Positions 930 through 12,421 of a DNA stretch of 54,172 nt are shown here, in pieces. The stretch is from an uncultured Atribacterota bacterium (GTDB lineage Bacteria; Atribacterota; Phoenicimicrobiia; Phoenicimicrobiales; Phoenicimicrobiaceae). Each line of letters opens with the position of its first letter. Position 1 is the first letter of the stretch. The notes below the pieces were generated by a model. The model was not told the origin of the DNA, ran no database searches, and saw nothing but the letters and a program-made list of their open reading frames with translations. The DNA lies in NCBI GenBank assembly GCA_964438695.1, contig CAYTKP010000003.1, forward strand, positions 1-54,172, given 5' to 3'. The position numbers were made by a program, and so were the translations under genes.

Positions 930-1460
930 ATGGAGAAAACATTGGTTTTAATAAAACCCGATGCATTTAAAAGAGGCCTGGTTGGAGAAATAATTTCCAG
1001 GTTGGAAAGAACAGGACTGAGATTGGAGGAAATAAAAATAGTAAATGCTACTATTAAAATTTTAGAAAACCATTATCCTGATGACAAAGATTGGATTAGA
1101 TCTGTCGGTAAAAAGACTGTAGATACTTATAAAAAATATAATTTAAATATTGCAAAGGACTTGGGCACTAAGGATGCTCTGAAAATTGGGAAATTAGTGA
1201 GAAAATGGTTGATTCGACATCTAACTTCTGGGCCTATAGTTGTTATTATATTAAGTGGAAACCATGCTGTTGAAATTGTACGAAAATTAGTAGGGAATAC
1301 CGTCCCTCTTTTTGCTGAACCGGGAACTATAAGAGGTGATTTTTCTGTAGATTCACCTGATATATCTACTAGAGAAGGACGAGCGTTACAAAATTTAATT
1401 CATGCTTCAGAAACTGTTGAAGAGGCAAAGAGAGAAATTTCTGTTTGGTTTGGAATTTGA
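930..1460 (+). CDS. ndk: nucleoside-diphosphate kinase (long form with an internal insertion)
   Basis: N-terminal TLVLIKPDAF, PGTIRGDF and the active-site region NLIHASE (NxxH[GA]S[DE]). About 30 extra residues follow ENHYP compared with ~145-aa NDKs. GGAG RBS upstream. Confidence 0.85.
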   Translation: MEKTLVLIKPDAFKRGLVGEIISRLERTGLRLEEIKIVNATIKILENHYPDDKDWIRSVGKKTVDTYKKYNLNIAKDLGTKDALKIGKLVRKWLIRHLTSGPIVVIILSGNHAVEIVRKLVGNTVPLFAEPGTIRGDFSVDSPDISTREGRALQNLIHASETVEEAKREISVWFGI

Positions 1461-1623
1461 GAATTTATGATAAAAAATATAAATTATAGTTAGGGTAAAT
1501 TTTGGTGGGCAAGTTGATATAGACAATATATAGAAAATATGCTAACATTACTTCAATAAGAAAAGAGATGCCTGATTTTGATAGTATTTTTGGTAATTAA
1601 TAATTTATATTGAGGAGGAAGAA

Positions 1624-1845
1624 ATGCAAAAAAGAGTAGAAGCTGCTTTGGAGAAAATAAGACCGTCTCTGCAGGCAGATGGTGGAGATGTTGAATTATT
1701 AGAAGTTACTTCTGATGGGATAGTGAAAGTGAAACTTACCGGTGCCTGTGCAGGTTGTCCAATGAGACAGATGACTTTACAGATGGGGATTGGTAGGGCA
1801 TTAAAGAAAGAAGTTCCTGAAATAAAGGATGTTGTAGCAGTATAA
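1624..1845 (+). CDS. NifU C-terminal-domain (Nfu-type) Fe-S cluster carrier
   Basis: 73 aa with IRPSLQADGGDVELLEV and the CxxC motif GACAGCPM, typical of Nfu/NifU-C. Strong GAGGAGG RBS. Confidence 0.8.
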   Translation: MQKRVEAALEKIRPSLQADGGDVELLEVTSDGIVKVKLTGACAGCPMRQMTLQMGIGRALKKEVPEIKDVVAV

Positions 1846-1877
1846 CCGCCATTCAATACATAAATATTATAATACAA

Positions 1878-1925
1878 AAAGGGCACAATATAACCGAGCA
1901 GTATAGTGCCCTTTAGTATTTTTAA
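1878..1925 (+). terminator. intrinsic terminator after nfu
   Basis: 9-bp stem AAAGGGCAC/GTGCCCTTT (1878-1886 / 1906-1914), followed by a T-rich tract. Confidence 0.55.
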
Positions 1926-1954
1926 GAAGAGTATTGGGTTATTTATCGACTAAA

Positions 1955-1984
1955 TTGAAAAATTTAATGATTTTCAGTTATAAT
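1955..1984 (+). promoter_or_regulatory. sigma70-like promoter for the giant ORF
   Basis: TTGAAA (1955-1960), 18-bp spacer, TATAAT (1979-1984). Such matches occur by chance in AT-rich DNA. Confidence 0.4.
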
Positions 1985-2030
1985 AATAAAAAGGAAGAAA
2001 TTTTATATACAAAAGATAGAGGTTCTTTTA

Positions 2031-5000
2031 ATGTTTAAAGCCACAAGTAGAGCATTATCAGAAGAGATATCAAGAAAGATTATGAATCCTGAAATATTGG
2101 ATATTGCTTCTCAGCAGAAAAATTTTGTCAAAAAATATATTGAAAGTCCTGAGTTTTCGAATAAATTATTATCTATAATAGAAAATAAAGATTATAGCTG
2201 CCAGGCAGTTTATGCTTTATGTCAGGACATACTTAATACAATAGACAAGAAACATAATTCCCATAATTGGCTTTATAAAGTATATCAATTTGCCTTATCT
2301 CAATCTTTTCCCGAGGCAGTGGAACTTTCTTTTGAAGATATCTCCGATAATTGTCGGAAGACTTTCTTATTATATTTAGAAGTTTTAAGAGTGATATCAG
2401 AGTACCAAAAGTCTTCTGATGATTCTACTTTTCAAAGTAAATATCCCCTAAATTTTCTGACTGCTGAAGAAAAATCTAAATTAGAAAAACCCGCTGAATA
2501 TAAAAGGTTTATAAAGGCATTTAAGGATGAATATATTTATGAGATGATGAAACTAAGTCAGGAAGTATTAAATTATAATACCCTTGACCATATATGTGGG
2601 GTTAACTGGATTGCTTTATTTATTGGTCGCCAATTATATAGTAGGGGTCTTCCAGTTGATTTAGCGAGAGTTTCAGGGGCAGCAGTGGGACACGATATAG
2701 GGAAATATGGGTGTAAAAGTATCGAAAGAGAGAGAACTCCTTATTTGCATTATTATTATACTGATATGTGGTTTAAAAAGCATAATATTCCTTACATCGG
2801 ACATATTGCGGTCAATCATTCCGTCTGGGATTTAGAATTAGAAAATCTACCTCTGGAATCTCTTATTTTAATCTATTCTGATTTTCGGGTAAAAAACGAA
2901 AATAATAATTCCAATATAAAGAAGATGAAGATTTTTACGCTTAAAGATTCTTTTCAAGTAATTTTGAGTAAATTAGATAATGTTGATGAAAAGAAGAGAA
3001 GAAGATATTACCGGGTATATGCAAAATTAAAGGATTTCGAAGATTATATGGTAAATTTGGGAATAAATGTTGATTTAGATCATAAAGAAATGCAGTTACC
3101 GCCAAAAAGTAGAAAATTATATTATTCACTTATGCATAGCCAGGAAGTTATACAAAATATAAAATATCTTGCAATAGAGCATAATATAAACTTAATGTAT
3201 GAACTTCGAGACGAATCTTCTCTAAATTCGCTGTTAGAATTAGCTCGAAGTGAAAAAGACTGGAACAACCTACGGGAATATTTACAAATATTTAATGAGT
3301 ATTCCACTTACTTAACTCAAAGACAGAAAATGATTACCTTGCGATTTTTATATGAACAATTGACTCATCCTGAAGATGAAATAAGGAGGAGAAGTGCAAA
3401 ACTCATCGGTCGATTAATTGCTACTTTTGACGAAGATTATCGCAAGGAAATTCCCTCGGATGTTAATATTGAACCTCCGGCTATTACCAGTTATGATTTA
3501 TTAAATAGATACTTAAAGTATTTTTTACAGCCAGACTACAAAAAAATCCCCCTCCACCAAAATCGAATCATAAATAGTACTGATATTATGATTTCTTCTC
3601 TTTTTGCAAATAGTCGAGATAATCAGGTAAGTCATTATAGAGAAATTATATTAAGACATTATAAAAGGGATTTATATGATAATGAAGTTGTTCAATTATG
3701 TTTAATAAAAGCTGCCAAATATATCCCTATATCTTCTGATGATAAAAAATCTTCACCGAGGCTATTTAATTATGTTTTAGAAATGCTGAAAAAGAAAAAT
3801 ACTAATTTGAGACTTTTAGCCCTGGAGACAACCCTGTATATGATATCTCAGCTTAATGGAAAATCAAAATTCTTGATTCCTTTGCGGCAGATCTTTACTA
3901 ATAATATTTCAAATTCGACAATTCCAGCGGAAAATTTTTTAAGAATGAAAATAGTCGAATCAATAGAATTAGATAACAAAATTATAGAAAAACATAGAGA
4001 ATTTCATCATAAAGATCTGGAAAAAATACAGTACATATTCTTGAGTAATCTCAAAACTTCGACGAGCTGGATAATCAAAAAAATACAGATACAACTATTG
4101 TTAGAATATACATTAAAGGCTAAGCAAGAAGAAATATACACAGCTTTACATTTTTGTAATATCTTAAAAGTGAGCGGCGTAGAAAGTATTAGAAACTTAG
4201 CCGGACAGACCTTGATAAATTTGATGCCTAGTCTATCGTTTGAACAACGAAATGATATTGCCATTGAGCTATTGCGAGCTTTGGAGATGGAAGATTATCA
4301 ATTTACTAAATATATCCCTTATTATTTAGGTCAGTTAATAAATTTTCTCCCTCCTAATGAGTTAGAAGAACTTATTGATGATTTAATAGAAAAGATAAAA
4401 CAATCAGATCCCAAATTAAGTTCTTTATTACTTAGAACTATCGGGATAACTATTGCTAATTATCCAAAATACAAAGAAAGATTTCAAGAAAGCAGAAAAT
4501 CATACGAAAATAAACTTAACAAAATGATTGGTATTCTTTTGAATGGTTTTGTGCATTACAGTTTTCAGGTTAAACAAGTAGCTTTTAGAGTTATTGGGAA
4601 GGAAATATTTGGTTCAAAACACCTTAGTTTAGAGGATAAAAACCATATATTTCAGCTCATTGCTAAAAAAATTCTAACCTTGCTTACTCCAATTAGTAAA
4701 GAGGGATTAATGTTTTTAAGTACCTGTAATGGACTTAACTATACATATAAATTTATCTCAGATTATAATTTCTTCAAAGGTAGAATAAACCTTAAGGCTC
4801 CATTGAAGATAGCTTTTTTCCCGGGTTCATTTGACCCTTTTTCTTTAAGCCACAAAGAAATAGTTAAGAAGATAGAGGCGCTTGGTTTTGAAGTATATTT
4901 AGCAGTTGATGAATTTTCCTGGTCTAAAAGAACTCAACCCCATCTTTTCAGGAAGAATATAATAAATATTTCTATTGCTGATGAACTTAAGGTATATTTA

Positions 5001-6959
5001 TATCCTGAGGATTTACCTGTTAATATTGCCAACCCGAATGATTTACGAGCTTTAAGAAGTAATTTTCCGTCTTCTGAGCTTTATATGGTAGTGGGGAGTG
5101 ATGTAATATTAAGTGCCTCTGCTTACCAAAAGGAAAAGACAGAAAATTCTATACACACCTTTCCTCATATTATATTTGATAGAGGAACTTCAAATATTAG
5201 CAACGAGAGAGAAAAAAATATTGAAGAAGCTATTAAAAATATTGAAAAAGAGATTATTATCCTTAATCTAACTCCCCAATATGAAGAGATAAGTTCAAGT
5301 CAAATAAGAGACAATATTGATGAAAATCGGGATATTTCTAAATTTATCGATCCTTTAGCCCAAAAATATATTTATGAGAATAATTTATATCAAAGAGAAC
5401 CACAATATAAGAGTATAATGCAGACGATTTCTATTGATGTGCAGGTAATTGAAGATATTACCTCACATTTAATAGAAGAGCTTTACTCTAAAATATTTTT
5501 TCAACATAATCGGGAATATATATTTAAAAAGTTTAATGAATTTTCTCATAAATTAAATCCCAGGTTTTTGCTTTTACGTGATCTTGAGCATAATGGGATG
5601 TTGTTGGGGTTTTCAGCTTTTCATTGGGTTCGCTCAAGTATTCTCTTCCAGGAGTTTAACAACAATATAATTTCTGAGTATATTAGAGAAAATGCAATTG
5701 GTCGCATAATAGTTATTGATGGAATTTTTACTATAAATGAGGCCGGAAATAAATCAGAATTTGAAAATCTTGAACAGATTATTCTTACCGAGACTATTTC
5801 TTATTGCATCCAAAAAGATTATAATTACACAATTTTTAGGAATATTTTGGATAATTATAGTTTAAATTCTCTGTATGAGAGTTTAGAATTGATGGGATTT
5901 TATCGCTTACCATTTAGTGAGGAAGATAATCCAGTATTTGTAGTAGATATGAGTAAACCCTGCATAATTAATCTGGAAACAGAGAGTGTGATAAAAGAAC
6001 CCTTTAACCAAAATTTAAATATTAAAAAATCAATTATTAAATCCCGAAGGAGATTATTGAAATCATTAACTTCCTTTTATTCTGGGAATATTGTGTTACC
6101 ATTTAACATAAATTTAATCAATCAGACCATTGTTAAGAAGATATGCAAATTAAATAATGTTCCAACAATACCTTTGACTCCTCGAGTTCTGGGAGAGTCA
6201 ATATGTGTGCCCTTTGGAAAGATACTGCATAAAATGGTGGTTCCAAATACGGTAACCAAATCTCTGCATACTGAAAAAATATTTTCTTCTGATATGAAAA
6301 GTTTTAAAATCGACGCTTTCCCTAATTATATGAATTTGGAAAACCAGGTAAAAGTTGTTAGTTCGTTTAATATGCCGGTGATTCTAATTGATGATTATCT
6401 ACATAAGGGTTATAGAATAAAGACCTTGGAACCTCTTTTCCAAAAGTATGATGTTAAAATCAAAAAGATAATTTTGGGGGCATTGTCTGGAAGCGGAAAA
6501 GAAATTGCTTCCCTCCTAAACAGAGATGTTGACTCTGCTTATTTTATCCCTAATCTCAGAATATGGTTTAACGAAAGTGAATTATATCCTTTTATTGGAG
6601 GAGATGCAATAAAGCGAAAAAGTAGATCTCAAGGGAATTTAGTTCGATCTATTAATTTAATCTTACCCTATACCTTTCCTTCATTTATAAAAAATGTTCC
6701 TGGGAAAATTATTTATAACTTTTCTAAGGTTTGCATGGAAGGCGCCTTGACTATTTTAGAAACCCTTGAAGATGAGTACCAATCAATTCAACAAAGAAAG
6801 TTAACTCTTAGTCGTTTAGGGGAAGTAATTATTTACCCTCGCTATCCTGATCAGGGAGAAAATATGGAATATAATTTAAGTCTTAGTCCCTCTCATTATT
6901 TGAAGAATGACCTTGAGCTTTTAGAACGGATGGGAGAAATGGTGGATAGGGAAATATAA
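2031..6959 (+). CDS. 1,642-aa multidomain protein: HD phosphohydrolase + HEAT/ARM-like repeats + NadD/NMNAT-like nucleotidyltransferase + possible GNAT-like region + PurF-like phosphoribosyltransferase domain
   Basis: Uninterrupted 4.9-kb ORF in AT-rich DNA. HD core at aa ~185-290 (LDHICG, VGHDIGKYG, IAVNHS, IYSDFRV). Helical repeats at aa ~300-900. Nucleotidyltransferase at aa ~925-1120 (FFPGSFDPFSLSH as the HxGH variant; EISSSQIR as the ISSTxxR-like motif). PRPP-loop-like VILIDDYLHKGYRI at aa ~1450-1463. Confidence 0.6.
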   Translation: MFKATSRALSEEISRKIMNPEILDIASQQKNFVKKYIESPEFSNKLLSIIENKDYSCQAVYALCQDILNTIDKKHNSHNWLYKVYQFALSQSFPEAVELSFEDISDNCRKTFLLYLEVLRVISEYQKSSDDSTFQSKYPLNFLTAEEKSKLEKPAEYKRFIKAFKDEYIYEMMKLSQEVLNYNTLDHICGVNWIALFIGRQLYSRGLPVDLARVSGAAVGHDIGKYGCKSIERERTPYLHYYYTDMWFKKHNIPYIGHIAVNHSVWDLELENLPLESLILIYSDFRVKNENNNSNIKKMKIFTLKDSFQVILSKLDNVDEKKRRRYYRVYAKLKDFEDYMVNLGINVDLDHKEMQLPPKSRKLYYSLMHSQEVIQNIKYLAIEHNINLMYELRDESSLNSLLELARSEKDWNNLREYLQIFNEYSTYLTQRQKMITLRFLYEQLTHPEDEIRRRSAKLIGRLIATFDEDYRKEIPSDVNIEPPAITSYDLLNRYLKYFLQPDYKKIPLHQNRIINSTDIMISSLFANSRDNQVSHYREIILRHYKRDLYDNEVVQLCLIKAAKYIPISSDDKKSSPRLFNYVLEMLKKKNTNLRLLALETTLYMISQLNGKSKFLIPLRQIFTNNISNSTIPAENFLRMKIVESIELDNKIIEKHREFHHKDLEKIQYIFLSNLKTSTSWIIKKIQIQLLLEYTLKAKQEEIYTALHFCNILKVSGVESIRNLAGQTLINLMPSLSFEQRNDIAIELLRALEMEDYQFTKYIPYYLGQLINFLPPNELEELIDDLIEKIKQSDPKLSSLLLRTIGITIANYPKYKERFQESRKSYENKLNKMIGILLNGFVHYSFQVKQVAFRVIGKEIFGSKHLSLEDKNHIFQLIAKKILTLLTPISKEGLMFLSTCNGLNYTYKFISDYNFFKGRINLKAPLKIAFFPGSFDPFSLSHKEIVKKIEALGFEVYLAVDEFSWSKRTQPHLFRKNIINISIADELKVYLYPEDLPVNIANPNDLRALRSNFPSSELYMVVGSDVILSASAYQKEKTENSIHTFPHIIFDRGTSNISNEREKNIEEAIKNIEKEIIILNLTPQYEEISSSQIRDNIDENRDISKFIDPLAQKYIYENNLYQREPQYKSIMQTISIDVQVIEDITSHLIEELYSKIFFQHNREYIFKKFNEFSHKLNPRFLLLRDLEHNGMLLGFSAFHWVRSSILFQEFNNNIISEYIRENAIGRIIVIDGIFTINEAGNKSEFENLEQIILTETISYCIQKDYNYTIFRNILDNYSLNSLYESLELMGFYRLPFSEEDNPVFVVDMSKPCIINLETESVIKEPFNQNLNIKKSIIKSRRRLLKSLTSFYSGNIVLPFNINLINQTIVKKICKLNNVPTIPLTPRVLGESICVPFGKILHKMVVPNTVTKSLHTEKIFSSDMKSFKIDAFPNYMNLENQVKVVSSFNMPVILIDDYLHKGYRIKTLEPLFQKYDVKIKKIILGALSGSGKEIASLLNRDVDSAYFIPNLRIWFNESELYPFIGGDAIKRKSRSQGNLVRSINLILPYTFPSFIKNVPGKIIYNFSKVCMEGALTILETLEDEYQSIQQRKLTLSRLGEVIIYPRYPDQGENMEYNLSLSPSHYLKNDLELLERMGEMVDREI

Positions 6960-6967
6960 AAAAATTG

Positions 6968-6994
6968 TATCTCATATCTCATAAATCGTATCTC
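6968..6994 (+). repeat. three direct TATCTC hexamers (start-to-start 7 and 14 nt)
   Basis: TATCTC at 6968, 6975 and 6989. The segment shares the 11-mer ATATCTCATAA and the 8-mer CGTATCTC with the reverse complement of 45991-46025. Confidence 0.3.
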
Positions 6995-7055
6995 CTTTTT
7001 TCGTGGAAATAACAGAGAACGTTTCAGAGATAGGGTGAAGGGGGGAAAATTAAAT

Positions 7056-8300
7056 ATGTTTTACTATAAAGTAAAAGATAAGATACTAATTTCCCAATCT
7101 AAATACAATGGATTAAAAAGAATATCGGAAAGTGAAGCAAAAGACAGTAAAGGTATAATCTATGCTCTTACTCAGATAAATCCTTTAAAGTCCAGAAGAA
7201 GTTTTAGCGTTACCGATTCATCTCTAATCTTTTTAAAAGAAGAGGGAATACACTTACTGCAAAAGTCTAAGAAGATTGATTATGATTTAGCAATATGGAT
7301 TAAAGAAAGAATTAAAGAAAAAAGAGTAAGTTCACTTAATACCGAATATCCTGATTGGCAAGATGTGATAACACATCAATTTCCTGGTTGTTGGAAGATT
7401 AATATTGTAGGACTGGGAGATGTGGGAGGAACTCTTCTTACTGGATTAAGATTATTGGGTGGGAAATATATCAAGAGTATTGGGATATATGATAAAAATG
7501 TTAAACTTGTAAAAAGATGGGAATTAGAAGCAAATCAGATATTTTATTCTTCTGGGTCTCAGATATATCCTGAAGTATATGCTTTAAAGGAAAAAGAAGT
7601 TTTTGATTGTGACTTATTTATCTTTTGCGCTACAGTAGGTGTTCCACCCGTGGGAGGAGACCAAAAAGATGTAAGAATGACTCAATTTGAAGGAAACTCT
7701 AAAATAATTTCTGATTATGCCCAGAAAGCTCGGGAAAAATCATTTAAGGGAATATTTGCAGTGATTTCGGACCCGGTTGATTTATTGTGTAAATATGCTT
7801 TTTTAGTTAGTAATAAAGATAAAAATGAAAAATTTGATTTTAAAGGATTAGCAGCAGAACAGATAAGGGGATATGGTTTAGGGGTTATGCATGCCCGAGC
7901 AGTATATTATTCTAAGCAAAATCCCAAGACTGCTAATTATTATCAAGAAGGTAGAGCATTTGGCCCTCATGGCAAAGGTTTAGTAATTGCCAATAATATA
8001 AAAAAGTACGATGAAAGACTTTCCGAGAGGCTTACCAATCAGACCTTAAAGGCAAATTTAGAAATAAGAAAGGTCGGCTTTAAACCTTATATTGCCCCCG
8101 CCTTGTCTTCAGCCTGTTTCCCAATTATCGCTACTATCAGAGGGAAGTGGCATTATAGTGCAACTTTTATGGGAGGAGTGTATATGGGTGCGAGAAATAG
8201 ATTACATAATTCTGGGATTGAAGTTGAAAGATTGGATATCCCCATTTTATTATTTGAAAAAATAAAGAAGAGTTATGAAGAATTAGGTAATATTTTGTGA
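7056..8300 (+). CDS. divergent lactate/malate dehydrogenase-superfamily protein with a ~110-aa N-terminal extension
   Basis: Rossmann KINIVGLGDVGGT, IYD acidic residue, FCATVGVPP, ISDPVDLLCKYA (cf. VSNPVD) and FGPHGKG (cf. GEHGDS). ATG 7056 follows a GAAGGGGGG RBS; the ORF track starts at GTG 7035. Confidence 0.6.
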   Translation: MFYYKVKDKILISQSKYNGLKRISESEAKDSKGIIYALTQINPLKSRRSFSVTDSSLIFLKEEGIHLLQKSKKIDYDLAIWIKERIKEKRVSSLNTEYPDWQDVITHQFPGCWKINIVGLGDVGGTLLTGLRLLGGKYIKSIGIYDKNVKLVKRWELEANQIFYSSGSQIYPEVYALKEKEVFDCDLFIFCATVGVPPVGGDQKDVRMTQFEGNSKIISDYAQKAREKSFKGIFAVISDPVDLLCKYAFLVSNKDKNEKFDFKGLAAEQIRGYGLGVMHARAVYYSKQNPKTANYYQEGRAFGPHGKGLVIANNIKKYDERLSERLTNQTLKANLEIRKVGFKPYIAPALSSACFPIIATIRGKWHYSATFMGGVYMGARNRLHNSGIEVERLDIPILLFEKIKKSYEELGNIL

Positions 8301-8341
8301 AAAATATAAAAATATAAATGATATATAGAGGAAATCAATTT

Positions 8342-9391
8342 ATGGAAAGTATTTATTTGCTAATTCCCGGAAAGATATCAAATAGTTTTTCTGATATTAT
8401 AAAAAAAGCTACAGCAGGCTATAATCAGATAATTATTAAAACATTTGAAGATATTACGGACCTAAAAAATAAGAAGATAGTTTTTGCTATAGAATTAGAT
8501 GAATGTGGATTTAATATTTCACTATTCGAGATACTTTTAAAATTACGAAAAAAAGGAAATGATTCTCTTCTTGGTTCAAGTGCAGTAATTATAATTCAAA
8601 GCCCCAGTGAATTATTTACAAAAAATATTGCTCAAAGAATAATTTTTTTAGCCAGCCTGATGGGTTGTAGGTTCCCAGGTCATCCAGTTGTAGAGGCAAC
8701 CAATAATCTCCACAATTTTATTACCTGGCAAAAAATCTACAATTTGTCCCTTAAGGAAATTTATCAAAAACAAGCAAAAGAACTAGTAGATAAATTAATG
8801 GATGAAAAGCCTATCTTGATTAAAAATCCTAAAATGTTAGTCCTTCACTCCAGCTCATTTAAAACTTCTAATACTCTGATGCTCTGGCAGATGGTTAAGG
8901 AAAATTTGAAAATAAAAAACTTAAGGGAATTACATGTGGAAAACGGCACTGTAGTAGACTGTAGAGGATGTTCTTATAAAACCTGTGTCCATTATAGTCA
9001 AGAAAAAAGTTGTTTTTATGGAGGAATAATGGTAAAAGAAATTCTTCCGGCAATTGAGGATGCAGATTGCACAATCTGGCTATGCCCTAATTATAACGAT
9101 GCTATATCTGCAAAACTTATGGCAGTAATAAATAGGCTGACGGTACTCTACAAGAGAGTGAGATTCTGGGACAAAAGTCTGTTTTCCATCATTGTTTCCG
9201 GAAATTCTGGTAGTGATTGTGTAGCTGAGCAATTATTAGGGGCTTTAAATATTAATAAGGGATTTAGATTACCTCCTTATTTTGTCTTAATGGCTACTGC
9301 TAATGACCCAGGTGCAATCAGGAAAATTAAGGGGATAGAGAAAAAAGCGGTAAAATTTGCCCGGAATATAATGAAAGAATTTAAAAATTAG
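8342..9391 (+). CDS. two-domain flavodoxin-fold protein; the C-terminal half resembles NADPH-dependent FMN reductase / iron-sulfur flavoprotein
   Basis: C-terminal domain MLVLHSSSFKTSNT...CRGCSYKTCVHYSQEKSC...DADCTIWLCPNYNDAISAKLMAVINR matches the flavodoxin-like FMN reductase pattern with a Cys cluster. ATG 8342 is preceded by AGAGGA; the ORF track starts at 8318. Confidence 0.5.
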   Translation: MESIYLLIPGKISNSFSDIIKKATAGYNQIIIKTFEDITDLKNKKIVFAIELDECGFNISLFEILLKLRKKGNDSLLGSSAVIIIQSPSELFTKNIAQRIIFLASLMGCRFPGHPVVEATNNLHNFITWQKIYNLSLKEIYQKQAKELVDKLMDEKPILIKNPKMLVLHSSSFKTSNTLMLWQMVKENLKIKNLRELHVENGTVVDCRGCSYKTCVHYSQEKSCFYGGIMVKEILPAIEDADCTIWLCPNYNDAISAKLMAVINRLTVLYKRVRFWDKSLFSIIVSGNSGSDCVAEQLLGALNINKGFRLPPYFVLMATANDPGAIRKIKGIEKKAVKFARNIMKEFKN

Positions 9392-9405
9392 AAGAGAATA
9401 AATCT

Positions 9406-10437
9406 ATGAAGAAGAAAGATATTAAAGATTTTACTTTAGATGAATTAAAGAAAAAATTTGAAGATTTAGGAGAAAAAAAATTTAGAGCAACTCAGTTATT
9501 TTTTTGGGTTTATAAAAAAGGTACAGAAGATTTTAATGATATGTCTGATCTTCCCGTAGTATTTAGAAAATTTCTTCACAACAACTTTTATCTTAGCAAT
9601 ATAGAATTATTAAAATTTGTTAAATCTAAAGACAAAACTGAAAAGTACCTGTTAAGATTAGAAGATGGAAGTGTAATAGAAACTGTTCTAATATTTTCAA
9701 GTAGGGGGAGGATAACTGAATGTATTTCCTCGCAAGTCGGGTGTAAATATAATTGCTTATTCTGTGAAAGTGGCAAAAAAGGTTTTACCAGAAACCTTAC
9801 GGTTAGCGAGATTTTAAATCAAGTTTTATTTGTTAAGAAAAAGATGCAGTCTAATCCTCACAATATTGTTTTTATGGGGATTGGGGAACCTTTAGATAAT
9901 TACGATAATGTTATAAAAGCAATTTGTATATTAAATTCCAAAGAGGCCTTTAATATTGGAGCAAGAAAAATCACTATTTCTACCTGTGGGATAATACCGG
10001 CAATAAGAAAGTTACAAGAATGTAATTGGCAGGTAGAATTATCAGTATCTCTTCATGCCTCCGAAAACAAATTAAGGTCTTATTTGATGCCAGTTAACAA
10101 TAAATACCCTTTATATGACTTAATAGAAGTTTGTAAAAATTATGTGAAGAAAACAAATAGGCAAATTACTTTCGAATATATTTTGATTAAAGGAATAAAC
10201 GATTCTCTTAATTATGCTGATAAATTAGCTAGACTAATTGGAGGATTTAATTTTAAGGTAAATTTAATCACTTTTAATCCTACTTCTGGTTCTCTGCTAC
10301 AATCGCCTGATATTTCACAAATTAAATCCTTCAAGGAAAAGTTATTAGTTAAAAAAATCCCTACTACTATAAGAATATCTAAGGGCAGTGATATATCTGC
10401 TGCCTGTGGTCAACTAAAGAGTCTTTATCTAAAATGA
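9406..10437 (+). CDS. rlmN: 23S rRNA/tRNA adenine-C2 methyltransferase, radical SAM
   Basis: FRATQLFFWVY N-terminus, radical-SAM CKYNCLFCESG, and C-terminal SAACGQL. Confidence 0.92.
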   Translation: MKKKDIKDFTLDELKKKFEDLGEKKFRATQLFFWVYKKGTEDFNDMSDLPVVFRKFLHNNFYLSNIELLKFVKSKDKTEKYLLRLEDGSVIETVLIFSSRGRITECISSQVGCKYNCLFCESGKKGFTRNLTVSEILNQVLFVKKKMQSNPHNIVFMGIGEPLDNYDNVIKAICILNSKEAFNIGARKITISTCGIIPAIRKLQECNWQVELSVSLHASENKLRSYLMPVNNKYPLYDLIEVCKNYVKKTNRQITFEYILIKGINDSLNYADKLARLIGGFNFKVNLITFNPTSGSLLQSPDISQIKSFKEKLLVKKIPTTIRISKGSDISAACGQLKSLYLK

Positions 10438-10573
10438 CTTTAAAAATATTGATTTATTTTATTATTTTTCTTATGTCTTATTGGATCGTCAAGTAAAAAA
10501 GAATAGCATTAATCATTATAATATTTTCTCTTTACATGATAAGAGGTACTGAATACACAATATTAAAATATTC

Positions 10574-10601
10574 TTGACTTTCTATGTATATCTGTTATAC
10601 T
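10574..10601 (+). promoter_or_regulatory. sigma70-like promoter for the tRNA gene
   Basis: TTGACT (10574-10579), 16-bp spacer, TATACT (10596-10601), about 26 nt upstream of the tRNA 5' end. Confidence 0.55.
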
Positions 10602-10627
10602 TTTAACGAAGATAATTACTTGATTAC

Positions 10628-10703
10628 GGGCCCATAGCTCAGCTGGTAGAGCAACCGGCTCATAACCGGTCGGTCCCTGGTTCGAATCCAGGTGGGCCCA
10701 CCA
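10628..10703 (+). tRNA. tRNA with CAU anticodon (elongator Met, or Ile2 if lysidine-modified), with encoded CCA
   Basis: Hand-folded cloverleaf: acceptor GGGCCCA/TGGGCCC, D arm GCTC-AGCTGGTA-GAGC, anticodon arm ACCGG-CTCATAA-CCGGT, T arm CCTGG-TTCGAAT-CCAGG, discriminator A, CCA. G1-C72 pairs, so it is not an initiator. Confidence 0.9.
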
Positions 10704-10770
10704 TTACTAACAAGGATAGTAAATTATATGAGTAAGTATATGAGAATAAAAAAATATTACTTTTTTTAAA

Positions 10771-10806
10771 ACCTTACTTCTGCCACATAAGAAGTAAGGT
10801 TTTTTT
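10771..10806 (+). terminator. intrinsic terminator after the tRNA
   Basis: 10-bp stem ACCTTACTTC/GAAGTAAGGT, followed by TTTTTT. Confidence 0.8.
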
Positions 10807-10854
10807 ATTATAAATTATAATGTTACGAATAAGAGCAGGGGGAGGAATAGTTAT

Positions 10855-11568
10855 TTGAAGAAACAGTTGGAAATGCTTTTAGAACTGCAAAGGATAGATA
10901 ATGATATAGATGAAGAAGAAAAGAAGAAAAGAAAATTACCCTCGAAATTAAATAAGATTACTATGGAAATTCAGGAATTACAAAATAATCTCATAATTAC
11001 AAAGAATACTTATAAAGAATTAAAGATTATGTTGAATAGAAAAGAATTAGATTTATCTGATAAATCTAATAAAATTAAAAAACATCAGGAGGATTTATAT
11101 GGGGGTAAGATAACCGATATTAAAGAACTTAGACAGTTGCAAGGAGTAATAGCAAACTATGAAGAAGAAAAAACTTTGATTGAAGATGAACTGTTAGATC
11201 TAATGGAAAAGATAGAAGAAAACGATAAATTGATTAATGAACTTGAAGAAGATTTAAAAGAGAAAGAAAAGCATTTACAAGATTGCCAACAAGAAATAAA
11301 ATTGATAGTCTCAAAGATAGAAGAAAAAATAAGTTCTTTTTATGATAAAAGAAAAGGGATATTAAGTAAAATAACTGATAATCATCTTCTCAAGGAGTAT
11401 GAATTATTGAGAAGGGAAAAAGATGGAAAAGCCATTGTTGAGGTTAATAGTTCTATATGTCCAGGTTGTTACCTTGATCTCCCCAGCGATACTATCTATC
11501 AATTAAAAAAGGGCCAAGTAGTGACCACTTGCCCTAATTGTAATAGAATTTTGGTTTGGAAAGGGTAA
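10855..11568 (+). CDS. coiled-coil C4 zinc-ribbon protein (COG1579-like)
   Basis: Long heptad-rich E/K/L region, then CPGC...CPNC zinc ribbon at the C-terminus. TTG start 9 nt after GGGGGAGG. Confidence 0.7.
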   Translation: MKKQLEMLLELQRIDNDIDEEEKKKRKLPSKLNKITMEIQELQNNLIITKNTYKELKIMLNRKELDLSDKSNKIKKHQEDLYGGKITDIKELRQLQGVIANYEEEKTLIEDELLDLMEKIEENDKLINELEEDLKEKEKHLQDCQQEIKLIVSKIEEKISSFYDKRKGILSKITDNHLLKEYELLRREKDGKAIVEVNSSICPGCYLDLPSDTIYQLKKGQVVTTCPNCNRILVWKG

Positions 11569-11692: not shown

Positions 11693-12150
11693 CTTATAAG
11701 TAGACCAGGTAATCGCGGAAGAAGAATAATTTCTTTCGAGGAAAGTCCGAGCTCCGTAGGGCAAAGTGCTGGGTAATCCCCAGTGAGGGTGACCTCAAGG
11801 AAAGTGCTACAGAAAATATACAGCCTGGTACCCAATCCCAAAATTAATTAGAAAAGATAGTTTTAAGTTTAAAAAATGAATAAAAAAGATTTTTTAAAAG
11901 TAATTTAATCTCAGGATTGAGTGCCGGGTAAAGGTGAAAAGGTAGGGTAAGAGCCTACCAGTTGTTAGGTGACTAACAAGCTTAGTAAACCCCACTTGGA
12001 GCAAGACCAAATAGGAAGAGTTGTGGTGGCCCGCTGAATCTTCGGGTAGGTCGCAAGAGGTGTAAAGTAATTTACATCCCAGAGAGATGATTACCGCCCC
12101 TATCATTAATAGATAAGGGAACAGAACTCGGCTTATGGTCTACTTATAAG
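11693..12150 (+). ncRNA. rnpB: RNase P RNA, bacterial type A
   Basis: P1 pairing CTTATAAGTAGACC / GGTCTACTTATAAG. Conserved P4 strands GAGGAAAGTCCGAGCTC and ACAGAACTCGGCTTA. GGTAAAGGTGAAAAGGTAGGGTAAGAGCCTACC module. AT-rich extension of ~75-95 nt in the P12 position. Confidence 0.92.
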
Positions 12151-12159
12151 AATAATATA

Positions 12160-12217
12160 GAAAAGAAAAAGAGACATACAACAGAATTCTTTTAATTGTA
12201 TGTCTCTTTTTCTTTTC
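12160..12217 (+). terminator. long hairpin after rnpB (terminator or processing stem)
   Basis: Perfect 21-bp stem GAAAAGAAAAAGAGACATACA / TGTATGTCTCTTTTTCTTTTC with a 16-nt loop. Confidence 0.6.
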
Positions 12218-12421
12218 TATATTCCAATTTCTTCTTCAATAGTATACCTCAAAGAATTAATTTTGTAGTTTTAACTCTATTTTCTTCGAGATCAAAAAAA
12301 TAAGAATTATGTATTTATGTGCTTATTATCTAAGACACACTAAATATGTGGTATTTATTACTTTTTTTAAAAAAAAGAAAAATATTTTTTTAAAAAAAGA
12401 GGATTTTTTAAAAAAATGTAG

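Follow-up and report, generated by a model that had tools for sequence, protein, structure and literature searches.

A conserved three-gene operon of strict anaerobes, encoding a giant NadD-like/HD fusion protein, an LDH-like protein and a flavodoxin-fold protein, and its possible role in the metabolism of NAD-like dinucleotides

We have analysed a stretch of 54,172 nucleotides from an uncultured Atribacterota bacterium (contig CAYTKP010000003.1 of GenBank assembly GCA_964438695.1; the whole of this stretch is referred to as the window) that carries three consecutive genes on the + strand. They encode a giant multidomain protein of 1642 amino acids (aa; 2031..6959), a protein of 414 aa that resembles NAD-dependent dehydrogenases with the fold of lactate and malate dehydrogenases (LDH and MDH) and has an N-terminal extension of ~110 aa (7056..8300), and a two-domain flavodoxin-fold protein of 349 aa in which an N-terminal alpha/beta domain precedes a C-terminal FMN_red domain (8342..9391; hereafter the flavoprotein). 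By comparing sequences from many genomes we have shown that these three genes have the layout of an operon and form a conserved unit that is inherited together, and that the HD motif and the NadD-like ATP motifs of the giant protein are conserved, as are the equivalents of LDH residues Arg109, Arg171 and His195 in the second protein, in which Asp168 is replaced by Met. As for the function, our proposal, which we hold tentatively, is an auxiliary salvage, repair or editing of NAD-like dinucleotides in strict anaerobes, apart from housekeeping NAD synthesis; from the domains present we infer a module able to make, break and redox-edit a dinucleotide of this kind.

The initial annotation of this DNA had proposed a dedicated cofactor or redox module instead of three unrelated genes, and we have checked this against the gene neighbourhood in other genomes. 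A scan of one genome per species yielded at least 568 confirmed stretches and 80 loci (Atribacterota and many Clostridia families) with 10-kb flanks, and the neighbours in these loci were counted by tblastn together with clustering of open reading frames (ORFs). Synteny was very strong and the operon is kept in distant genomes: 77 loci contain the giant gene, the LDH-like gene follows it immediately in 70 and is itself followed by the flavoprotein gene in 66, while the most recurrent unrelated flanking family appeared in 11 of the 80, and the loci lacking partners were mostly on truncated contigs. All three genes are full length in 63 loci, with median ORF-based gaps of 9 and 0 nt, and the gaps measure 50 nt or less in 52 (first gap) and 48 (second gap) of these 63. 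Furthermore, the pairwise distances of the three proteins in these loci correlate (r = 0.84-0.86) and their mean divergence is equal (0.53). Among 86 Atribacterota genomes, the giant gene is present in 43 and the LDH-like gene in 42, both confined to the same two families of one order and found in none of the 34 genomes of five other families; most of the few mismatches between the two genes are located at the ends of contigs. The Clostridia were sampled evenly at a completeness of 90% or more, and 27 of these 399 genomes (~7%) carry the giant gene. In one complete Clostridiaceae genome the operon is split, with the giant gene on its own at 3.82 Mb and both partners together at 2.29 Mb, and two genomes contain two giant genes each, one copy per genome carrying the partners. 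It is extremely improbable that three unrelated genes have come to lie next to each other by chance in this genome. Each protein does belong to a broad superfamily with many independent roles, and this is all that speaks for such a coincidence, but order, orientation and tight spacing are kept across two phyla in 63-70 of the 80 loci, with correlated distances and a common phyletic pattern, so that the synteny already contradicts it. The dedicated module is therefore upheld by the synteny, the co-distribution and the split-operon pair, and its character as a cofactor or redox module is something that we still infer.

In a FastTree phylogeny of the C-terminal half of the giant protein, the Atribacterota sequences form one clade (support 100) among the Clostridia, beside Tepidibacter and Alkalithermobacter (support 94). 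This nesting, together with the absence from the other Atribacterota families, suggests one ancient transfer of the operon, the tree being unrooted and therefore silent on its direction. A full operon was also found in a record titled 'Calditrichales bacterium MX18-03' (locus L015), whose giant protein nests in the Clostridia beside that of locus L012 (support 99), a placement that points to gene transfer or to a mislabelled or contaminated assembly. In addition, one Clostridia genome contains, beside a normal copy, a divergent giant-like ORF of 1694 aa with 31-48% identity over the C-terminal half (G218:C9:45678-48002), which hints at a deeper paralogous branch.

In the window, the three genes are co-directional, as had been annotated, with + strand ORFs extending over 2031-6959, 7035/7056-8300 and 8318/8342-9391. 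The ATG at 7056 is preceded at ~9 nt by a Shine-Dalgarno-like purine-rich run (AAGGGGGG) and that at 8342 at ~7 nt by another (AGAGGAAA), and the family consensus starts at the same Met in both cases ('MxYY...' for the LDH-like protein and 'MxxLxxIxP' for the flavoprotein, with 60 homologues aligned for each). As 7056 and 8342 are then the correct starts, the intergenic gaps are 96 and 41 nt, in agreement with the lengths given earlier. Neither gap contains a terminator-like site, as the initial annotation had stated, their folding does not exceed the level of shuffled sequences (z = 0.12 and -0.27), and Rfam models detected no riboswitch or leader RNA in the 5' untranslated region or in the gaps (E <= 0.1). 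The terminator proposed upstream is real: it consists of a hairpin at 1878-1915 plus a T-run (1878..1925, + strand), folds with -17.4 kcal/mol (z = -6.2, equalled by 0 of 200 shuffles), closes an upstream NifU-like gene (1624-1845) and forms the upstream edge of the unit. The promoter-like sequence TTGAAA-18-TATAAT (1955..1984, + strand), located 46 nt 5' of the giant ATG, is likewise the top-scoring site within 1400-11000 with 11 of 12 matches, a consensus match only and of a class that is itself not enriched in this AT-rich DNA (56 sites seen versus 46 +/- 7 expected from shuffles).

The downstream end of the unit, which had been placed at 9391, is a part of the initial annotation that needs adjusting. 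The co-directional, terminator-free run extends beyond this position up to a strong intrinsic terminator with a 14-bp stem and a T-run (10768..10803, + strand; -18.2 kcal/mol, z = -6.6), and the transcription unit in this Atribacterota genome probably continues to it through rlmN (9406..10437, + strand; TIGR00048, 394.7 bits versus a cut-off of 290), which begins 14 nt after the flavoprotein stop codon, and a tRNA-Met (CAT) gene (10628..10703, + strand), which lies between rlmN and this first strong terminator. rlmN was found 3' of the operon in the four nearest Atribacterota loci (L001, L002, L004 and L005) and in no Clostridia locus, and its co-transcription is probably limited to the Atribacterota lineage. 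A TG-extended promoter-like sequence (TTGACT-16-TATACT, 10574-10601) was also observed just 5' of tRNA-Met.

Homologues of the giant protein number more than 5,800, are close to it in length (about 1,630 aa) and share 65-90% identity with it in Atribacterota and 52-57% in Clostridia, which places the window in an Atribacterota genome. A 12-sequence alignment of the family has a mean column identity of 67%. It consists of an HD domain, a helical HEAT-like scaffold, a NadD-like domain, a GNAT-like domain and a family-specific C-terminal domain. The HD phosphohydrolase domain (residues ~150-300; 2478..2930, + strand) retains conserved metal-ligand residues, and His187, His221-Asp222, His240, His263 and Asp284 are invariant in the family alignments. 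The Pfam HD model (PF01966) matches this particular protein weakly (15.2 bits versus a cut-off of 22) and is matched by 34 of 46 family members (best E = 1.4e-7), and a profile of the domain retrieved non-significant HD matches only from the Protein Data Bank (PDB; 4mcw, E = 0.076; 1xx7, E = 0.12). We considered whether this domain is of the YqeK type (COG1713) and rejected it, as hhalign against the genome's own YqeK gave a probability of 0.2% and the order of the motifs is alike by eye only. The helical repeat region that follows (~500 residues, residues 400-900; 3228..4730, + strand) is presumed to be a scaffold; its HEAT matches are weak (E = 0.01 and 4e-4), and PF02985 is precomputed on several homologues. 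The remaining 743-residue C-terminal half (residues 900-1642), comprising the NadD-like, GNAT-like and C-terminal domains, gave a compact three-domain AlphaFold2 (AF2) model (predicted local distance difference test, pLDDT, 88.4; predicted template modelling score, pTM, 0.87).

The NMNAT-like domain announced by the initial annotation is present (residues 925-1123; 4803..5399, + strand): CTP_transf_like (PF01467) matches residues 929-1094 with 26.8 bits versus a cut-off of 21, and the domain displays the motifs FPGSFDPFSLSH and EISSSQIR. PF01467 is a superfamily model and the only one that passes, because all NadD equivalog models remain far below their cut-offs on the giant protein, including TIGR00482, with E = 2.2e-13 yet 50.7 bits versus 112.45. 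hhalign of this domain with the genome's own NadD produced a full-length alignment (probability 89.5), and Foldseek searches with the AF2 model retrieved 5lm3 (E = 8.3e-8) and many NadD structures with target template modelling (TM) scores of 0.7-0.77. In the ATP motif FDPFSLSH, His941 is invariant and Ser occupies the first position, in the manner of the TxGH variants ((S)xxH), and in the ISSxxIR motif S1088, S1089 and R1093 are invariant. A Tyr occupies the position of the Trp in the 'IESW' segment of the genome's own NadD, and the 'PSYSIDT' segment of NadD, which we take to be the one that binds nicotinic acid mononucleotide (NaMN), aligns to 'NIANPNDL' in the giant protein, where N998 and N1001 are invariant. 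Because of this last replacement, the acceptor of the NadD-like domain is probably not NaMN, as far as can be read from the alignment.

The other two domains of the C-terminal half are without an established active site. The GNAT-like domain (residues ~1135-1346; 5433..6068, + strand) was recognized by fold matches of the AF2 model, with FeeM (2g0b) at E = 1e-4 and viral GNATs at ~4e-4 and target TM scores of ~0.6. Its conservation is low (0.42-0.5). The acyl-CoA binding motif of GNATs is of the Q/RxxGxG/A type, and no such motif is visible in this poorly conserved domain, nor does Pfam GNAT match the giant protein. In the case of the C-terminal alpha/beta domain (residues ~1353-1640; 6087..6950, + strand), which contains VILIDDYLHKGYR and is highly conserved, the VILIDD-YLHKGYR motif lies on a strand-loop-helix in the AF2 model, with D1454, D1455, G1460 and R1462 invariant, and a likeness to phosphoribosyltransferases (PRTases) comes from this motif and from weak PRTase-type fold matches in BFVD (E = 4e-3 to 1.4e-2, probabilities 0.25-0.91). 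An identification as a PRTase by sequence failed in every search made: PF00156 matches four other genes of this genome and not the giant one, hhalign of the domain against the genome's PrsA, PyrE, Apt and ComFC gave nothing significant, the sole PDB match of its profile was the phosphoribosyl pyrophosphate (PRPP) loop of HPRT (E = 0.66), and the same profile run against 1.84 billion representatives found 416 proteins at E <= 0.001, of which the best 150 all belong to the giant family.

This combination of domains could also be explained by a regulatory writer/eraser, in which the giant protein would act as a sensor and reversibly adenylylate a target, perhaps its two partners, the NadD-like domain writing and the HD domain erasing, with the GNAT-like and PRTase-like domains as ligand sensors and the helical region as a docking platform, in a manner that resembles control of the GlnD/GlnE type. 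We consider this unlikely. The union of one domain of synthetase type and one of hydrolase type in a single polypeptide, along with a long helical scaffold, would fit it, the poor conservation of the GNAT-like domain suits a binding role, and the extra N-terminal modules of the partners are possible docking or modification sites; however, the pattern of conserved Ser-Lys-Arg and aromatic positions is like that of a site for small-molecule nucleotides, the giant protein is also present as a second copy without partners and, to our knowledge, no nucleotidyltransferase with a HIGH motif (NadD type) modifies proteins.

For the second gene, the annotated LDH/MDH Rossmann fold was recovered with Ldh_1_N (PF00056; 34.6 bits versus a cut-off of 27), and the nearest PDB relatives are L-LDHs (E = 1.3e-9). 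With the LDH residue register taken from the HMMER alignment to L-LDH, the GxGxxG motif and R207 (LDH R109), R281 (R171) and H305 (H195) are invariant in the family (60 sequences), and Asp146, at the position that specifies NAD, is kept in at least 90% of the sequences. Asp168 of LDH, the partner of the catalytic His, is replaced by the invariant Met278 (GLGVMxAR), and Asn140 is replaced by Asp239. The N-terminal extension is also conserved. The protein does not reach the LDH/MDH equivalogs, its scores being about a tenth of the cut-offs (TIGR01771, 30.9 versus 303.55 bits; NF004863, 26.4 versus 283).

The flavoprotein has, as proposed, an NAD(P)H:FMN reductase-like fold, with FMN_red (PF03358) at 61.4 bits versus a cut-off of 24. 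Its AF2 model contains two alpha/beta domains (pLDDT 93.4, pTM 0.92), and Foldseek ranked azoreductase, NQO1 and FMN reductases highest (E = 1e-6); neither an NCBIfam match nor a PDB sequence match was found. The C-x2-C-x4-C-x8-C cluster that had been described reads DCRGCSYKTCVHYSQEKSC (Cys207, Cys210, Cys215 and Cys224 counted from the Met at 8342; 8960..9013, + strand), all 60 homologues retain its four Cys, and the cluster is presumed to be an Fe-S site. The FMN loop is also invariant in these 60 homologues, as are the SNT loop and the PNYND motif. The description of two flavodoxin-like domains comes from the topology of the model. An internal duplication was considered and rejected, since hhalign of the N-terminal against the C-terminal half gave a probability of 0.7%, though the N-terminal half does contain beta-alpha-beta in the model.

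The genome that carries the window has its own genes for NAD synthesis. With 1.03 Mb in 77 contigs, the assembly has an estimated completeness of 93% (another genome from its genus has ~1.7 Mb at 91% completeness, so this genome is strongly reduced or its completeness is overestimated). A canonical nadD (184.2 bits, above the cut-off) adjoins yqeK on contig C4, NadC (228.7 bits) and NadE (265.8 bits) are encoded, and a nicotinate PRTase is found at C15:240-1298 (NF006415, 470.8 bits versus a cut-off of 243), whereas PF04095 matches nothing in this genome and in 0 of 86 Atribacterota genomes. Two candidate roles were rejected on these grounds, namely that the giant protein is the housekeeping NadD, given the separate canonical nadD and yqeK on contig C4, and that its C-terminal domain replaces a missing nicotinate PRTase, given the NF006415 PRTase, NadC and NadE. 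As canonical NadC, nicotinate PRTase, NadD with YqeK and NadE are also encoded, the module does not serve housekeeping NAD synthesis. A defence system or phage origin was discarded as well, because none of the three proteins has PADLOC or PHROGs matches.

A canonical NAD pathway that is complete without the module would also agree with the biosynthesis of an undescribed dinucleotide-type cofactor or signalling nucleotide, which we regard as possible but rather doubtful. Here PRPP and an unusual base or acid would be converted to a mononucleotide by the C-terminal domain, provided that this is a PRTase, and the mononucleotide would be adenylylated by the NadD-like domain. Formation or modification of the part that is not a nucleotide, such as a 2-hydroxy-acid, would fall to the LDH-like protein and the Fe-S flavoprotein, in analogy to the incorporation of a lactyl or hydroxyglutaryl group into F420 or methanopterin, and trimming or recycling of the product would fall to the HD domain. 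In its fullest form, to which we give the same low credence, the trio would make on the giant scaffold enzyme an undescribed redox cofactor or signalling nucleotide of dinucleotide type that is specific to strict anaerobes, its non-adenosine half being made or adjusted by a rewired LDH-fold dehydrogenase and a ferredoxin-type Fe-S flavoprotein. The acceptor site unlike that of NadD fits this biosynthesis, as do the conserved LDH residues Arg109, Arg171 and His195, which suit a 2-oxo- or 2-hydroxy-acid substrate, the conservation of the three proteins at the level of core enzymes (~53% identity between phyla) and the retention of the operon in an assembly of only 1.03 Mb. On the other side, the C-terminal domain is not established as a PRTase, the 80 loci show no linkage of the operon to other genes of biosynthesis, the flavoprotein is dispensable in some carriers, and presence in ~7% of the sampled Clostridia would be odd for a general cofactor, although compatible with a niche one.

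Neighbouring genes in one Atribacterota family provide a further clue to pyridine nucleotides. The operon lies there between a divergently transcribed nnr gene (NAD(P)HX epimerase/dehydratase) and a nicotinamidase-like gene, whose product of 179 aa belongs to the isochorismatase family and has nicotinamidase/pyrazinamidase as its best NCBIfam match (132.8 bits versus a cut-off of 174). This neighbourhood persists after loss of module genes: two loci (L088 and L089) are without the giant and flavoprotein genes and another (L093) is without the flavoprotein gene only, the order being otherwise the same. The gene order in this family (L088 6266-12196 and L090-L093) is nnr (divergent), giant, LDH-like, flavoprotein, isochorismatase, an ORF of 150 aa that has no Pfam match, Impact_N/UPF0029 and a small flavodoxin. 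In nine Clostridium loci, a PHP phosphoesterase gene directly follows the flavoprotein gene on the same strand (for example L026 17315-18151), and its best NCBIfam matches, RNase RNM and 3',5'-nucleoside bisphosphate phosphatase, are both below their cut-offs.

Our own proposal, the auxiliary salvage, repair or editing of NAD-like dinucleotides, would assign the parts as follows. The NadD-like domain of the giant protein would adenylylate a phosphorylated acceptor other than ordinary NaMN, and the HD domain would cleave the same or a related dinucleotide, as YqeK proofreads NadD. The GNAT-like and C-terminal domains would bind a substrate or effector, and the helical region, together with the extra N-terminal modules of the partners, would position the LDH-like dehydrogenase and the Fe-S flavoprotein, which might then act on the base, or on a group resembling a 2-oxo- or 2-hydroxy-acid, by hydride and ferredoxin-type electron steps. 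No part of the module reaches the trusted or equivalog cut-off of its nearest enzyme family.

Several observations weigh against this proposal. The conserved Arg171 and His195 equivalents, read from the alignment, indicate a 2-oxo acid as substrate, and NAD chemistry offers no obvious role for such a compound; with the differing acceptor segment of the NadD-like domain, the substrate of the giant protein does not follow from its homology; the assignment of the C-terminal domain as a PRTase is weak and unproven; and the HD domain lacks hhalign similarity to the YqeK of the same genome. Moreover, the neighbourhood with nnr and the nicotinamidase-like gene is confined to one lineage, neither gene lying within 10 kb in any of the ~70 Clostridia loci. 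Finally, the three proteins are not strictly obligate partners, since the flavoprotein gene is missing beside the giant and LDH-like genes in two genomes and on one Atribacterota contig, and the LDH-like gene is the only one of the three in two Atribacterota genomes that belong to one genus.

Three further observations were made elsewhere in the window. In the region 11697-12221, a bacterial class A RNase P RNA was found (299 bits; 454 nt versus a model of 367 positions, which implies inserts), and a strong hairpin at 12156-12221, directly 3' of it, attracts chance matches to microRNA models. In the nucleoside diphosphate kinase gene at 930-1460 (176 aa), the Pfam NDK match is split in two, suggesting an insertion relative to typical NDKs.

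Full-text literature searches found no study of the giant-protein family. The operon spans 7.4 kb, is kept with ~50-55% protein identity between Atribacterota and Clostridia, and occurs in several hundred species. Should the module repair or recycle pyridine nucleotides without oxygen, a gap in the metabolite damage control of anaerobes would be closed; should it make a new nucleotide, anaerobic metabolism would gain a cofactor or signal. Whichever of the two applies, the current database names ('cytidyltransferase', 'nicotinate-nucleotide adenylyltransferase' and 'lactate dehydrogenase') probably mislead, and they continue to spread. The cultivated carriers include Geosporobacter subterraneus DSM 17957, Sedimentibacter saalensis DSM 13558, Clostridium tagluense and Alkaliphilus pronyensis, so that the question is directly testable. 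What is new here are the phylum-level tallies of co-occurrence, the complete canonical NAD gene set, the partly decayed modules and the negative results on the PRTase.

The closest precedent for the giant protein is NadD-YqeK, in which a NaMN adenylyltransferase is either fused to an HD diphosphatase or encoded in a cluster with it, so that a NadD-fold adenylyltransferase is again combined with a hydrolase of the HD superfamily. The NadD-YqeK fusion proofreads analogues of nicotinic acid adenine dinucleotide, the hydrolase cleaving the products or misproducts of the transferase (PMC9426524). In the giant protein, however, the order of the two domains is reversed, the genome has a separate nadD-yqeK pair besides, and ~1,100 further residues (scaffold, GNAT-like and C-terminal domains) as well as the two redox partners have no counterpart in NadD-YqeK. 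Salvage systems offer a second comparison: NadM-Nudix is a bifunctional NMN adenylyltransferase/ADP-ribose pyrophosphatase encoded beside the nicotinamide PRTase NadV, so that a PRTase, an adenylyltransferase and a pyrophosphohydrolase are joined for salvage in a way that would resemble the module described in this work. The hydrolase is HD and not Nudix here, the NadV system lacks redox partners, and the PRTase-like domain of the giant protein is unproven and does not have the NadV/PncB fold (PF04095 is absent). The LDH-like protein shares with L-lactate and malate dehydrogenases the GxGxxG motif, the NAD-specifying Asp and the equivalents of Arg109, Arg171 and His195, but it differs from them by the changes of Asp168 to Met and Asn140 to Asp, by the N-terminal extension of ~110 aa and by being always encoded with the giant protein, two genomes excepted. 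The flavoprotein, for its part, has the FMN_red domain and flavodoxin-like fold of the iron-sulfur flavoprotein Isf, NAD(P)H-dependent FMN reductases, azoreductases and NQO1. Its four closely spaced Cys, a short way downstream of the FMN phosphate loop, may be comparable to the motif of Isf, which binds a 4Fe-4S cluster and whose spacing we take to be C-x2-C-x2-C-x4-7-C instead of C-x2-C-x4-C-x8-C, and it is distinguished from Isf by an additional conserved N-terminal alpha/beta domain of 160 residues.

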